DNA from: an uncultured Gammaproteobacteria bacterium
Lineage (GTDB): Bacteria; Patescibacteriota; Patescibacteriia; UBA9934
DNA: 33,237 nucleotides
Direction: 5' to 3'
Assembly (NCBI GenBank): GCA_964491425.1
Contig: CAZBFR010000002.1
Location: forward strand, 1-33,237
A model generated the notes under the pieces. It was not told where the DNA came from. It saw only the letters and a list, made by a program, of their open reading frames with translations, and made no database searches. A program made the position numbers and the translations under genes. The number at the start of each line of letters is the position of its first letter. Positions within the stretch are counted from its first letter, which is position 1. Of this stretch, positions 18,308-22,444 are shown one piece after another.

Positions 18308-19243
18308 ATGAAACGGGAGGCGTTTGAAGCGTTGTGGGAGTCCTCCTTGAGGCGGGAACTTGAGGGCCTTGAAGAACTGCGTCTTAAAGAACGACGGGCG
18401 ATTATTATAGGTTCGATTGTAGGGGGAGCGATCGCAATTGCCTTGAGTGTGTTCGCGGCCGTGAACGAGGGGGATATTCGAATTGGTATTTTTGGGGCTC
18501 TCGCAGGGACCGGTTTGTACTATCTCTTGCATCCAATGGAGTATCGAGCGAAGTACAAGGACCTTGTGATTAAGGGGCTGATGAATCAAACGACGTATCG
18601 CTGGGAACACGAAGCGAAACGCGCGGGTCAAGACGATAAGTACGACACGCTTTTAAAAGAGTCGGGGTTGTATCGTGTCTCGGGAGCGAACAGGGCTGTG
18701 GCGGACGATGTATTTGTTTCGAAGACTACCTCACTTCACTGCGCCGAACTCCACGCTTCGGCGGGGAGCGGAAAACAAAAGAGAGATTATTTCATGGGGC
18801 TGTTTTTCGCCTTTAATCTCTCAAGGTCATTTAACGGAGAGACCTATTTACGCAAGGCGGTAAGTTACGCGGATCCGGTTGGAAGATCGGGTACCTACGG
18901 ATCGCTTAAAACGATTTCGCTCGAGTGGGGTGAGTTTGAGAGACTTCTTGAGGTGAAGTCAACCGACGAGGTTGAGGCGCGCGAGATTCTCGATCCCCGC
19001 TTCATGGCTATTTTGTATGATTGGTGGGTGACGCACAAGGCGAGCGTTCGTATCGGCTTCCACCACAATCACCTCTACTTATCAGCGGGATTTGGGAGAA
19101 ATTTATTTGAACCAAGACCATTTTCCTCAATTGAAACGCACAAAGATCAGCTTTGGGAGTATCTCGACGCCTTTCTTCTTGTTGAAAAGTTGTTCGACCA
19201 CGTTGAACACAAATATCGGCTAACGAAAAAACTCGAGGTTTAA
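18308..19243 (+). CDS. DUF3137-like membrane protein
   Basis: 311 aa. AAGGAG lies 10 nt upstream. After two TM helices come ...YFMGLFFAFNLSRSFNGETYL...LEWGEFERLLEVKSTDEVEAREILDPRFM..., which fits my recollection of the DUF3137 pattern. Confidence 0.65.
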   Translation: MKREAFEALWESSLRRELEGLEELRLKERRAIIIGSIVGGAIAIALSVFAAVNEGDIRIGIFGALAGTGLYYLLHPMEYRAKYKDLVIKGLMNQTTYRWEHEAKRAGQDDKYDTLLKESGLYRVSGANRAVADDVFVSKTTSLHCAELHASAGSGKQKRDYFMGLFFAFNLSRSFNGETYLRKAVSYADPVGRSGTYGSLKTISLEWGEFERLLEVKSTDEVEAREILDPRFMAILYDWWVTHKASVRIGFHHNHLYLSAGFGRNLFEPRPFSSIETHKDQLWEYLDAFLLVEKLFDHVEHKYRLTKKLEV

Positions 19244-19255
19244 CCCTCGGGTTTT
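19221..19255. repeat. Direct repeat copy 1 (35 bp), covering the 3' end of the DUF3137 gene plus its terminator hairpin
   Basis: TAACGAAAAAACTCGAGGTTTAACCCTCGGGTTTT is identical to 20276-20310. It contains the hairpin 19232-19238/19245-19251 and a T-run. Confidence 0.9.
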
Positions 19256-19278
19256 GTTTATACTGCTACAATCTAGAT

Positions 19279-20274
19279 ATGCCCCCAGAAAGATTTTCAA
19301 AAAGTCCCGAGGTTCCAAAGCGAAAATATGCGGAGGATATTTTCGATCAGCTACCGGAAGTCGAAGTTGGTGTCGAGATACCGCGGGTTTCTATTACAAG
19401 ACTAACGGCTGGAAAAGCCGTTAGTCTAAGCCTATCTGTTGCGGAAAACCTTGGTAGACAGGGATGGGACGTGGACAGTTTGAAAACTACTGGTAAAGGG
19501 GACCTCGTCATCAATCAGCGTACCGGTGAGGTATATGTGGTGGTGGAGGTCCAAAAAGGGATGCTAAAAATCCGAGAGCATGAAACGGGAATGGAGGGTG
19601 CGATCGTTGCTCGGCCTAGAAGTTTAAAAGCTCACGAGTACTTGTACAGTATTCGAACTGATTTAGGTCTTTCTAAGAAAGTTAAAGTTTATGATGCTGT
19701 CTATCTGGATCATTCGTTAGAGACCGGTGAGTTTATGGATGGCGTCGCGGGTTCCATTCCGGCACCGTGTATGGATGTATTTGATGAAATCCAAGTGCAT
19801 CCACAGAGTACCGAGAAAGCTGGCGTCTTTAAGACCGAATCAGCCCTATTTTCAGAGAGGCGTGTTTTGTCAGCATATGTTAATGACAGCGGGCACTCGA
19901 TTGATGGCGTGAGAGAAACTATTTACCACGAATTGGGTCACGCTATCGCTAAGTACCTAAAAGGGAAGGTGAATCCAGGTGAAAAGTGGAAACAAGCCAT
20001 GCGAGAAGATGGGAATGAAGTTTCGAAATACGCGGCCAAAACGAGATATCCAAAACAGAATGATAACGGTGAGATAGAAGATTTTGCCGAGGCGGTGATG
20101 ATGTATTTGGCTACTGATGGTGCAAAAGAGGGGCGAGCTCGTGTTCTACGGGACTTCTGTAAGAGTCGTTTTCAAAAACTAGACGAGGTGTTTGCGGAGC
20201 TACTGGTTAGACAGAATTCTAGTAGACTGGACGCTCTAAAAAGGAGACTATTAAAACCTATCGGATCTTTATAG
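19279..20274 (+). CDS. HExxH zinc-metallopeptidase-like protein with a lethal-factor/M34-like motif arrangement
   Basis: 331 aa with no signal peptide. HELGH lies at residues 217-221 (nt 19927-19941) and EIEDFAEAV 44-50 residues downstream. This resembles the HExxH...E-F-F-A-E-A arrangement of anthrax lethal-factor-like gluzincins. Confidence 0.7.
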   Translation: MPPERFSKSPEVPKRKYAEDIFDQLPEVEVGVEIPRVSITRLTAGKAVSLSLSVAENLGRQGWDVDSLKTTGKGDLVINQRTGEVYVVVEVQKGMLKIREHETGMEGAIVARPRSLKAHEYLYSIRTDLGLSKKVKVYDAVYLDHSLETGEFMDGVAGSIPAPCMDVFDEIQVHPQSTEKAGVFKTESALFSERRVLSAYVNDSGHSIDGVRETIYHELGHAIAKYLKGKVNPGEKWKQAMREDGNEVSKYAAKTRYPKQNDNGEIEDFAEAVMMYLATDGAKEGRARVLRDFCKSRFQKLDEVFAELLVRQNSSRLDALKRRLLKPIGSL

Positions 20275-20275
20275 G

Positions 20276-20310
20276 TAACGAAAAAACTCGAGGTTTAACC
20301 CTCGGGTTTT
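20276..20310. repeat. Direct repeat copy 2 (35 bp), acting as a bidirectional terminator between the metallopeptidase gene and tRNA-Cys
   Basis: Identical to 19221-19255. A T-run lies on the plus side (20307-20313) and an A-run (20281-20286) gives a T-run on the minus strand. Confidence 0.9.
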
Positions 20311-20312
20311 TT

Positions 20313-20387
20313 TGGAGGCCACGGTGAGAATCGAACTCACGCATAGCGGTTTTGCAGACCGCCGAATTACCATTTTTCTACGTGGCC
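20313..20387 (-). tRNA. tRNA-Cys: tRNA-Cys (anticodon GCA), with CCA encoded
   Basis: The reverse complement folds as a cloverleaf. Acceptor GGCCACG/CGTGGCC; anticodon stem GCGGT/ACCGC with loop CTGCAAA; T-arm GTGAG/CTCAC with loop TTCGATT; 3' TCCA. Length 75 nt. Confidence 0.92.
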
Positions 20388-20467
20388 GTTGCAAGGAGGG
20401 TAACAGAATTGGGTGAAGTTTTCAAGAGCTCATTAGTTTGGGTGTGTGCTTCGGATTACATAAGTAA

Positions 20468-20500
20468 GAGCCGTCCACCGGATGATTCGGTGGGCGGCTC
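20468..20500 (-). terminator. Strong hairpin downstream of the M23 peptidase gene
   Basis: A 13-bp stem 20468-20480/20488-20500 (one G-U pair) with a 7-nt loop. It lies about 40 nt past the stop codon, followed by a moderately T-rich tail on the minus strand. Confidence 0.45.
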
Positions 20501-20542
20501 AGAGACGGTCGACAAGCAGCTAGCGTGGGGTCGCCGGTTCTA

Positions 20543-21151
20543 TTACTTGAACCTAGGGCGCAGGCTAATGACTCCGAACTGCCCACGTCCACCGTCGCTC
20601 ATAAATGCCAGAAAGTGCAGGTGGTCTCGGTCGGTCCAACCACTCTTACCGGTCCGAGCGATGGGCTGACCCGCGTCCACGTAATCTCCGACCTTGATGC
20701 CGAACTCGCATTCGGATCCCCGCGCCAAGTGGCAGTACTGCGTCCAGTGACGATACTCGGGTGGTCCGGAATGGTGATGTGTTCGCCGTGTCGTGTGAGC
20801 AAGCGTGATGTAGTTCAGGTCATCAGCGAACTCATACGTGGGCCCGTATCGTTCGGAATCTGTCTTGACCACCTCTACTCTTCCATCGTCGGCAGCATAG
20901 ACAACGGTTCCGTCAGGAACCAGAAAATCAATGGCGTGCCTAAAGGGGCCGATGTGGCTGTTGGGACTTTGACAACAGAGGAACGGCCCTTGAAGGAACA
21001 GATCTTCCTTGGTGACGCCGGCTACTAGGGCCGGAACCGCGAGACGAAGCGTTGTGGAGTCCTGAATCGGAAAGGATAGTGGATACGGGTATTCTTGGTC
21101 AGACGCGTACAGCGGGTTTGACGCTTCGCGTAGAAGGGTTTCGTAGTTCAC
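20543..21151 (-). CDS. M23-family peptidase without a recognisable signal peptide, GC-rich
   Basis: 202 aa with a GTG start and GAGG 9 nt upstream. M23 motifs are HAIDF (HxxxD) and DHLHF (HxH). GC is about 60% against about 48% for the backbone. Confidence 0.75.
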   Translation of the reverse strand: MNYETLLREASNPLYASDQEYPYPLSFPIQDSTTLRLAVPALVAGVTKEDLFLQGPFLCCQSPNSHIGPFRHAIDFLVPDGTVVYAADDGRVEVVKTDSERYGPTYEFADDLNYITLAHTTRRTHHHSGPPEYRHWTQYCHLARGSECEFGIKVGDYVDAGQPIARTGKSGWTDRDHLHFLAFMSDGGRGQFGVISLRPRFK

Positions 21152-21225
21152 GATAAACCTCGGGAGTTAGTGGATGGCGCCCATTTGTATGAACGCAGGT
21201 GTAAGTTATAGGCTTACTTATAAAC

Positions 21226-21265
21226 TTGCAAACAGTTGGCAATTTGTTGTAGAATTGTATTCTAC
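21226..21265 (+). promoter_or_regulatory. Putative promoter with an overlapping palindromic operator upstream of the TrmB-like regulator
   Basis: TTGCAA (21226-21231), 18-nt spacer, TAGAAT (21250-21255). The perfect inverted repeat GTAGAAT-TGT-ATTCTAC (21249-21265) overlaps the -10 box. Confidence 0.35.
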
Positions 21266-21326
21266 AAAAAGTATTATTAAAGTCCAATATAGTTGTAATT
21301 TATTAAAAAGTGTTGAAAAACAATCT

Positions 21327-22082
21327 ATGGAATCTATTGAATTAGCCTTAAAACAACTCGATTTATCAGAAAATGCAATCAAGATCTATCTGCAAAGCTT
21401 TCATACGGGAAGATCTACAATTGGAGCTTTGGCAAAATGTATATCCATGGATCGTTCCTCTGCCTATCTGGCCGTTCAACAACTCGTAGCAGAAGGACTA
21501 CTAAATGAGGATATTATCGATGGGAAAAAGCATGTTTGGGCAAGTCCACCTAATATAATTGGGGATCTGTTAAAAGATCACGCGCAACAATTTTCAGATA
21601 CCGCGCGAGATATCGATAAAAACTTGGGTGAATTACTGGTTAACTATAGGACGAATAATTCAAAAGTTGCTTTACAGTCATTTTCCGGAAATGGGTCATT
21701 ACCTCGAATTACACAGGATATTTTACAAAGTGATATATCAGAGGTGCGAATTTTTACGAATCAGAATGCCGAACGAAAAGTATTTTCGGCAAGCGCACAT
21801 GACGACTTTATTCAGTCCAGGGTCCGAAAAGGAATTAAGGCCTATGTTTTGGCTGCAGATACCAAAGGAGCGGATTTACTGCAACGATATGACGAGCGTG
21901 AACTGCGAAAAACAAAAGTTAATAAAAGTTTGGCGCCGTTAAAAAATGAAACGTACATTTACGGTGACAGTGTTGCTGTATTAGGATTCTCGGATACCGT
22001 TTTTGGATTTATTGTTCACGATAAAGAGTTTGCTGAGCTACAAAGGTTGTTATTTGACCACCTCTTTCAGACGGAAGGTTAA
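21327..22082 (+). CDS. TrmB-like winged-helix transcriptional regulator, AT-rich gene
   Basis: MESIELALKQLDLSENAIKIYLQSFHTGRSTIGALAKCISMDRSSAYLAVQQLVAEGLL fits the TrmB-type HTH pattern. The start is taken at the ATG at 21327 rather than at the track ORF start (21174). Confidence 0.65.
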   Translation: MESIELALKQLDLSENAIKIYLQSFHTGRSTIGALAKCISMDRSSAYLAVQQLVAEGLLNEDIIDGKKHVWASPPNIIGDLLKDHAQQFSDTARDIDKNLGELLVNYRTNNSKVALQSFSGNGSLPRITQDILQSDISEVRIFTNQNAERKVFSASAHDDFIQSRVRKGIKAYVLAADTKGADLLQRYDERELRKTKVNKSLAPLKNETYIYGDSVAVLGFSDTVFGFIVHDKEFAELQRLLFDHLFQTEG

Positions 22083-22444
22083 ACGCCGTGCTGTTCGTGG
22101 AGAATTCGAAGGATTGCGTCGAGCGGGAGGGAGGAGAGGTTTTTGGCTATGATCCGTTCAACGTTTTTACCGGTTTTTTTCTCGATCGTCTCGGCGAGAG
22201 GGGCTTTTTCTATCTCGATTGCGCAAAGATGAAGCGCTCCCGGGGATTTCTTTAGAAGTTTTGCGAGTGTTTCCGCGATAAGAGTAAAGAACGCGTTTCG
22301 GTCGCCTTCTTCTCCCGTCCAGTCGATCTTTTTTATCTCTTCGATCGTTCGATCTTTTGCGTAAATAAACCGCGCGCAGGTATTGCCGACGATTGTAAGG
22401 ATGGCGGGCTCCTTGTAGGGCGTGTAGTGTGCAGAAAGTTGCAT
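22079..22444 (-). CDS. Hypothetical protein
   Basis: 121-aa ORF with host-like composition. TATACT lies 10 nt upstream of the ATG. I recognise no family. Confidence 0.5.
   Translation of the reverse strand: MQLSAHYTPYKEPAILTIVGNTCARFIYAKDRTIEEIKKIDWTGEEGDRNAFFTLIAETLAKLLKKSPGALHLCAIEIEKAPLAETIEKKTGKNVERIIAKNLSSLPLDAILRILHEQHGV

Follow-up and report, generated by a model that had tools for sequence, protein, structure and literature searches.

We report on a 33,237-nucleotide stretch of DNA (contig C2, GenBank CAZBFR010000002.1; the window in what follows) from a metagenome-assembled genome (MAG), G000, of an uncultured bacterium of the Candidate Phyla Radiation (CPR), with 762,355 bp in 75 contigs and 96% completeness. 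In this window a unit carrying a single gene, which we call the cargo, stands between a DUF3137 gene and a tRNA-Cys gene, and is bordered on either side by an exact copy of the same 35-nucleotide sequence, which we call R. On comparison with related genomes and strains, we found that the unit is very probably a real, recent and strain-specific single-gene islet acquired in the G000 lineage. R (TAACGAAAAAACTCGAGGTTTAACCCTCGGGTTTT) occurs on the forward strand at 19221-19255 and at 20276-20310, the two copies being 1,055 bp apart. This agrees exactly with the original prediction, which was made from the letters of the window, and no match at all was obtained in 100 dinucleotide-preserving shuffles. 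The search for further copies that the prediction had proposed was carried out over the whole MAG with up to 3 mismatches and gave only these two. The repeat can be extended to 38 nt if one mismatch is allowed (37/38 identity).

R is made up of TAACG, a run of six A, a 7-bp stem, a 6-nt loop, the complementary 7-bp stem and a run of four T. It folds into a hairpin whose 11-bp stem is uninterrupted by bulges and includes a single G-U pair (-16.8 kcal/mol, z -3.8), with the A-run and the T-run on either side. In a terminator scan it is terminator-like on both strands, in keeping with the bidirectional activity that had been proposed for it, and R may be taken as a predicted bidirectional terminator hairpin. 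Copy 1 would be the terminator of the DUF3137 gene (18308-19243, forward strand; Pfam PF11335, 3e-18). Copy 2 would serve the cargo on the forward strand and, on the reverse strand, the tRNA-Cys gene (anticodon GCA, CCA encoded; 20313-20387), for which Rfam gave tRNA as the sole match. After the duplication of R each of the three genes therefore retains a terminator. Copy 2 begins 1 nt after the TAG stop codon of the cargo and ends 2 nt short of the encoded CCA of the tRNA, as had been described; the 3′ end of the tRNA is not within R, and at most its terminal A is shared in the 38-nt version. Copy 1 was said to hold the last seven codons and the stop of the DUF3137 gene. This is so for six codons and the stop, but of the seventh, a Leu codon, only two-thirds lies inside the repeat. 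The C-terminal tail TKKLEV and the stop are in fact the A-run, left stem and loop of copy 1 read in frame. Conservation of the DUF3137 family ends just before this tail, at ...HKYRL, and the tail itself is common only to G000 and to G004, a genome of the same genus. R is host-derived, its left part being this in-frame, lineage-specific tail. Among 185,579 species genomes a 28-nt core of R was found in G000 and G004 only. It was not found in the JGI (Joint Genome Institute) metagenome contigs or in the IMG/VR viral contigs, and a scan of metagenomes for the lineage-specific tRNA-Cys also gave no match.

The evidence that carries the insertion comes from sites at which the unit is missing. Between 13.5 and 25.9 kb of the window the order of the DNA is the same in G004, at 77-81% nucleotide identity (blastn), and exactly two segments of this region are missing from G004, namely 19259-20275 and about 20430-22074. 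At the first of these, G004 has the DUF3137 gene, one R (34/35) and then TTTTTTTGGAGGCC of its tRNA-Cys, so that the junction reads ...CACAAATACCGTTTAACGAAAAAACTCGAGGTTTAATCCTCGGGTTTTTTTGGAGGCC. An independent contig from the Logan collection, L022, has the same empty junction. Run X3, which comes from another study, contains strains of the same species; over 14.0-19.26 kb and 22.07-25 kb they match the window at 96-98% identity, and in these strains there is zero coverage of the cargo and of 20430-22073 at 95% identity or above. The 1,020-bp insert (19256-20275, forward strand) is thus absent from G004, L022 and the X3 strains. The ancestral layout that the original prediction had supposed (DUF3137 gene, one terminator, tRNA-Cys) is present as an empty site in G004 (with 1 mismatch), in L022 and in an X3 relative, and the insertion of a 1,055-bp unit into it is borne out by the collinearity of G000 and G004 elsewhere in the region. 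The two X3 strains are not alike. In strain beta the site is empty and the hairpin is a variant of its own. In strain alpha a perfect R (35/35) is succeeded by unrelated DNA instead of the cargo, and the tRNA-Cys is fused to a different terminator, reading ...AAAAACACCGGTTTGCACC up to the fusion point and GGTTTTTTT beyond it. This alternative insert is at least 2 kb long, beginning in the T-run and ending in a hairpin fused to the T-run. Two X3 contigs, of 2,107 and 1,953 nt, run on from R and from tRNA-Cys. (The X3 loose end agrees with contig C29 over 15 nt inside a coding region, and this was set aside as coincidence.) The slot therefore exists in three states within one species, which are empty, filled with the cargo and otherwise filled.

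These sites would also arise if an old arrangement with two terminators had lost the cargo in the relatives by recombination between the repeats, with the two copies in G000 kept identical by selection for termination or by gene conversion. A deletion between 35-bp repeats restores a perfect empty site, and hence G004 alone gives no polarity to the event. R is also under constraint, being 34/35 identical between G000 and G004 while the neighbouring DNA is only about 77-81% identical. Against this, empty sites are found in at least two lineages (G004 with L022, and X3 beta), each with its own hairpin variant, and a conspecific strain is without the cargo. The single-copy hairpin differs slightly from lineage to lineage, whereas the two G000 copies are identical even in TAACG, which has no function in copy 2; we take this to mean that the duplication is very probably younger than these lineage splits. 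The cargo has also kept an unameliorated GC content at third codon positions (GC3; 2nd percentile). Further, four other members of the genus (L011-L014) have the order o173, tRNA-Cys, o121, without the DUF3137 gene and without the cargo, each having a species-specific terminator. Compared with these four genomes, the tRNA-Cys of G000 and G004 is inverted relative to the flanking genes and only 76-83% identical, whereas the tRNA-Cys genes of G000 and G004 are 97% identical to each other. From this layout it follows that the inversion of the tRNA module and the gain of the DUF3137 gene would have come first, in the common ancestor of G000 and G004, and the gain of the cargo afterwards, in G000. 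We consider an ancient two-terminator layout improbable on these grounds. No relative was found with the same two-copy layout and diverged repeats, which is the case that the prediction had named as contradicting an insertion. It may be noted separately that the inverted and diverged tRNA-Cys suggests that the module of tRNA and terminator was itself rearranged or replaced upon the arrival of the DUF3137 gene.

It could also be argued that the structure was made by the assembler, the cargo being brought from elsewhere, or from a separate circle, and threaded in through the shared 35-mer. The MAG does hold evident artefacts in three places, where exact 55-nt repeats lie 155 nt apart (C7:2646/2801, C19:1936/2091 and C29:5605/5760); these are almost certainly local false duplications from assembly at k=55. 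Our comparison is based on assembled contigs, and for the Logan contigs k is 31, less than the 35-nt repeat, so that no k-mer spans R. One contig of X1, which like X2 is a wastewater run of the source study, indeed threads the DUF3137 gene, R and the tRNA directly. We did not accept this contig, which joins 19220 to 20276, as an empty allele or as evidence of excision, because all its k-mers are also present in the insertion form. On the other side, a final k of 55 (as indicated by the artefacts) exceeds 35, and real k-mers must then spell both junctions. The depth of the cargo contigs equals that of the flanks in X1 and X2 (Logan contigs), both junction paths are present in the source study, the structure is coherent, and the empty site of the relatives has exactly the same boundaries. 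An artefact is hardly credible in the face of these observations.

The content of the insert is very compact. It consists of 6 nt, an extended -10 promoter motif, a leaderless open reading frame (ORF) of 331 amino acids and 1 nt, and has no terminator of its own. The motif ACTGCTACAAT (19262-19272, forward strand; TGn-TACAAT) lies 6 nt before the ATG, and an extended -10 element so close to the start codon would therefore imply a leaderless mRNA. A scan for paired -35 and -10 elements at the cargo found no promoter. Genes of the cargo family in L008, L017, L018 and the window share the motif ACTGCTAnnnT, whose distance to the ATG is 6-7 nt in L017, L018 and the window and about 24 nt in L008. 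This suggests that the mRNAs of the family may be leaderless in several lineages of the CPR; no Shine-Dalgarno sequence is seen at the start in the family. Every homolog elsewhere has its own, different terminator, whereas the copy in the window lacks one and relies on R. The unit that moved thus seems to be a bare promoter with its ORF. The ORF (19279-20274, forward strand) encodes a protein with a beta-rich N-terminal half and a zincin-like C-terminal half carrying HExxH, and the residues H217, E218, H221 and E267/D268 are invariant in the family. Its AlphaFold2 model has a pLDDT (predicted local distance difference test) of 87.6, the N-terminal half being again beta-rich and the zincin half helical. 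The sole significant neighbour of this model in the PDB has a lethal-factor-type metallopeptidase fold, and this is a weak match (E 7e-4, TM (template modelling) score 0.34, 11% identity), with which sub-threshold matches to the Pfam families ATLF and SprT-like agree. The modelled likeness to lethal factor would be one of fold class only, with no sign of a toxin.

The original prediction had called the GC content of the unit host-like. This is roughly correct, yet among 475 ORFs the cargo lies at the 6th percentile for GC (0.456) and at the 2nd for GC3 (0.413), so its composition looks mildly foreign. The family is rare, with 23 proteins in 5.8 billion, apparently all from CPR, and a member is present in only 1 of 60 related genomes. 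The homologs (41-67% identity) have a different neighbourhood in every genome. The GC3 value, the rarity of the family and the varying context are together consistent with horizontal arrival. The same cassette was not found at the same slot in any distant genome, as all homologs are in other contexts. A 16-nt AT-rich pair (15/16) in L019 was tried as a flanking repeat and was judged to be due to chance. A phage origin finds no support, as IMG/VR contains neither R nor the ends of the alternative X3 insert nor the cargo family.

As to how the unit came in, the 3′ ends of tRNA genes are a classic target of integrative elements, and we tentatively regard an att-like (attachment-site-like) conservative recombination across R as the most likely mechanism. 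R, or its GGG-T-run edge beside the tRNA, would be the attachment site. A small circular or R-bearing DNA with the cargo (a 1,055-bp circle or an R-flanked molecule) would join the chromosomal R in the Campbell manner and leave an attL-like and an attR-like copy of R. The enzyme would come from outside the insert, either as a site-specific recombinase that an unbinned or lost element supplies in trans, or as RecA acting on 35 bp of identity. An exchange between the two copies could excise the unit once more. Where DNA is taken up, homologous recombination within the conserved flanks may then carry alleles from strain to strain or replace them, and the three allelic states in the species would be explained in this way. 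The exact repeats, the empty sites, the slot adjacent to a tRNA, a companion locus at tRNA-Val and the link of other long repeats to tRNA genes (both described below) support this model. The enzymes encoded in the MAG include RecA and ComEC. There is one tyrosine recombinase (PF00589), a Xer/XerA-like protein of 276 amino acids on contig C19 beside rplJ/rplL, in line with the earlier statement that no integrase or transposase accompanies the unit. Against the integron-integrase model TIGR02249 it scores 196 bits where the cut-off is 265, in a split match that skips the IntI positions of about 177-249. Its surroundings (C19:4526-8310) have a structure of their own, with a 2.7-kb segment of three ORFs between composite direct repeats of about 90 nt some 170 nt upstream of the start of the xer-like gene. 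This layout resembles that of xerS/difSL with an IMEX (integrative mobile element exploiting Xer), or of intI/attI with cassettes, and the repeat is unrelated to R. It was also seen that recA is split over two contig ends (C28:2-448 and C24:12605-12985), and these contigs are probably adjacent in the genome.

Several observations weigh against an att-like recombination. No integrase or transposase lies within the insert, and the MAG has no match to serine recombinases (PF00239), nor to Cas1 (PF01867), Y1 transposases (PF01797) or rve-type DDE enzymes (PF00665). No R-bearing donor element is known, because the core of R is confined to G000 and G004 in our searches, and this leaves the first association of cargo and R unexplained. 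The repeat stops 2 nt before the tRNA instead of including its 3′ end. The homologs of the cargo elsewhere have no conserved tag and no flanking repeats, and the alternative insert of X3 alpha has no R on its tRNA side.

Some of these observations would be expected if no recombinase was involved and a foreign fragment was captured at the terminator by duplication in situ, and we consider this the main alternative, somewhat less probable than the att-like recombination. Highly transcribed tRNA genes and palindromes are obstacles to replication. A polymerase may have left the host template in the T-run after R, copied the donor between two donor terminators and re-entered before the A-run. Alternatively, a staggered break of 35 nt around the extruded hairpin may have been filled in and its ends joined. 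By either route R would come to stand on both sides in a single step, and since R is host-derived and lineage-specific no pre-existing R-bearing element is needed. The trimming of the insert to promoter and ORF without the donor terminator is also what breakpoints in donor terminators would give. Of the two junctions, the left one falls within the T-run and the right one 5 nt ahead of the A-run; the insert of X3 alpha has its start in the T-run as well, and at its end a hairpin is joined to the T-run. The lack of a recombinase in the insert and the presence of ComEC and RecA fit equally. On the other hand, a flanking duplication of 35 bp is unusual for such events, there is no donor sequence in which microhomology could be shown, and the palindrome is not central in the duplicated block. 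That such duplications recur beside further tRNA genes, in one case with 15 nt of tRNA-Val included, is more like a dedicated att-type process.

This recurrence was seen when the MAG was scanned for exact direct repeats whose length is 20 nt or more and whose copies are no more than 6 kb apart, the three 55-nt artefacts being left out. Five independent loci have repeats of at least 33 nt, and 3 of the 5 abut tRNA 3′ ends (P about 3e-5); the length of the duplication varies between loci (35, 52 and 41 nt). At tRNA-Val(GAC), C26:3486-7271, an exact 52-nt repeat consisting of the terminator and the last 15 nt of the tRNA surrounds a 2.9-kb insert of two genes. On the 3′ side of this tRNA lie DUF6602, ASCH, a 669-aa orphan and a 245-aa orphan. 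After each of these genes comes one or the other of two related terminator tags, and one tag runs into a diverged 3′ fragment of tRNA-Val. There is no recombinase among these genes. In G004 the content on the 3′ side of tRNA-Val is entirely different, while the other side is 93% identical. The divergence between G000 and G004 is thus uneven, being about 77-81% in nucleotides in the window and 93% (99% in protein) around tRNA-Val, which suggests inter-lineage recombination or a mixed bin. Two further repeats were examined as insertions and rejected, since that on C12 is a conserved spacer between the genes of a tandem paralog array and that on C42 brackets housekeeping-like genes (murI and others). 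A longer exact repeat of 78 nt (C6:18733-21253), made of a long hairpin and a T-run, surrounds 2.4 kb with a GDSL lipase and a 237-aa orphan; it lies downstream of a GNAT gene near the end of the contig and not beside a tRNA. A more far-reaching reading is that CPR bacteria possess a gene-capture system at tRNA 3′ flanks, in which terminator hairpins serve as folded recombination sites in a role like that of attC. Units of promoter and ORF would be inserted and excised by a recombinase that recognises structure and has its gene elsewhere; the lone Xer/IntI-like tyrosine recombinase might be this enzyme. To this speculative proposal we give a low probability. If it were true, the locus in the window would be a clean gain of one cassette with its empty site, and the tRNA-Val locus an array of four cassettes.

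The other side of the tRNA-Cys gene is also variable. The second segment confined to G000 (20430-22074), which is seen as a blastn gap against G004 and has zero coverage in X3, lies on the 5′ side of the tRNA and is bounded merely by an imperfect similarity of the form GAAG(G)TT..AA. In it are an M23 peptidase gene (20543-21151, reverse strand; GC 0.56) and a gene for a TrmB-like regulator (21174-22082, forward strand; GC 0.37), both assigned by Pfam. The former is at the 90th composition percentile and the latter at the 0th, and this difference indicates that the two have separate origins. In the X3 strains this segment is missing and the tRNA joins straight to the sequence of 22085-22114, the end of o121. 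This conserved right-flank gene (22079-22444, reverse strand) comes immediately after tRNA-Cys in G004 and in the other members of the genus.

When set beside known systems, the locus behaves most like a small genomic islet at a tRNA flank. With tRNA-borne islands and prophages that use a tyrosine integrase it shares the 3′ side of the tRNA, exact direct repeats, an empty site (here an attB with exactly the same boundaries, in G004, L022 and X3 beta), a foreign-leaning cargo and a variable hotspot. It differs in carrying a single gene of 1 kb, with no integrase in the insert, nearby or as such in the MAG, and in that R is a terminator downstream of the tRNA which excludes the tRNA 3′ end. The CIMEs (cis-mobilizable elements) of streptococcal systems of integrative conjugative or mobilizable elements (ICE/IME) are defined by the loss of integration and transfer genes while attL and attR are kept (PMC5704250). 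The unit resembles them as DNA between putative att sites (the copies of R) that has no recombination or transfer genes and could in principle be moved in trans. The cargo could accordingly be thought of as what remained between attL and attR after internal deletions in a larger element with an integrase, and the insert of at least 2 kb in the same slot of X3 alpha would be in favour of this. Such decay, however, would have had to halt 6 nt upstream of the promoter and 1 nt past the stop codon without leaving debris, and no integrase-bearing element with R was found in the genomes, metagenomes and viral contigs searched, so that a decayed remnant seems very unlikely. The minimal mobile elements (MMEs) of Neisseria, or replacement flexible genomic islets (PMC3787668), are similar in having variable content between conserved flanks and no mobility genes. 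ComEC and RecA are available here and three allelic states are seen within the species. Unlike the present locus, they are not bounded by a duplicated 35-bp block, and the same cargo is unseen at the slot in a distant genome.

Integron cassettes are alike in that a single ORF is immediately followed by an imperfect palindrome of about 35 nt and that units are stacked next to an anchor; the MAG's tRNA-Val locus, with four genes each having a related hairpin tag, adds to the likeness. The locus differs in having no attI/Pc platform, a cargo with its own promoter and tags that are copies of the host terminator. We rejected an integron, as the recombinase is without the IntI insert and below the cut-off, and R has neither extrahelical bases nor a GTTRRRY core. 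Target duplication by a transposase, casposase or Cas1-Cas2 resembles the present case in that a palindromic host sequence of about 35 bp by a tRNA end is duplicated around an insert, as happens to the repeat in CRISPR and to the target when casposons insert at tRNA ends (PMC5137440). Casposon or CRISPR-like insertion, IS200/IS605 (insertion sequence) and DDE transposition were nevertheless rejected, the enzymes being absent from the MAG and the insert having no terminal inverted repeats. IMEX and pdif modules are likewise integrase-less, and are flanked by 28-bp imperfect palindromes of 11-6-11 geometry, as in R, and a single Xer-like recombinase is encoded by the present host. But R was rejected as a dif site, and the cargo as an IMEX, because the locus is not at the terminus (between 13 and 28 kb the GC skew stays positive, without a terminus-type switch) and no similar site exists elsewhere in the genome, including the repeats beside the xer-like gene. 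Our searches of the literature gave no account of insertions that duplicate a terminator at CPR tRNA genes.

The genomes of CPR bacteria are tiny and contain few recognisable mobile elements, and the way in which they gain and swap accessory genes is poorly understood. The present locus is an unusually clean case, in which three alleles (full, empty and otherwise filled) can be compared nucleotide by nucleotide between strains that are nearly identical. The unit is cut down to a promoter and one ORF, and nothing but the second copy of a host terminator betrays the event. Should the locus prove to be a single case, it is an ordinary small genomic islet. If the duplication of terminators and tRNA ends is a general pattern, it would reveal either a dedicated recombination system that has gone unrecognised or tRNA-side terminators as hotspots of recombinase-free capture, and either outcome would bear on the origin of cassette-like gene units.

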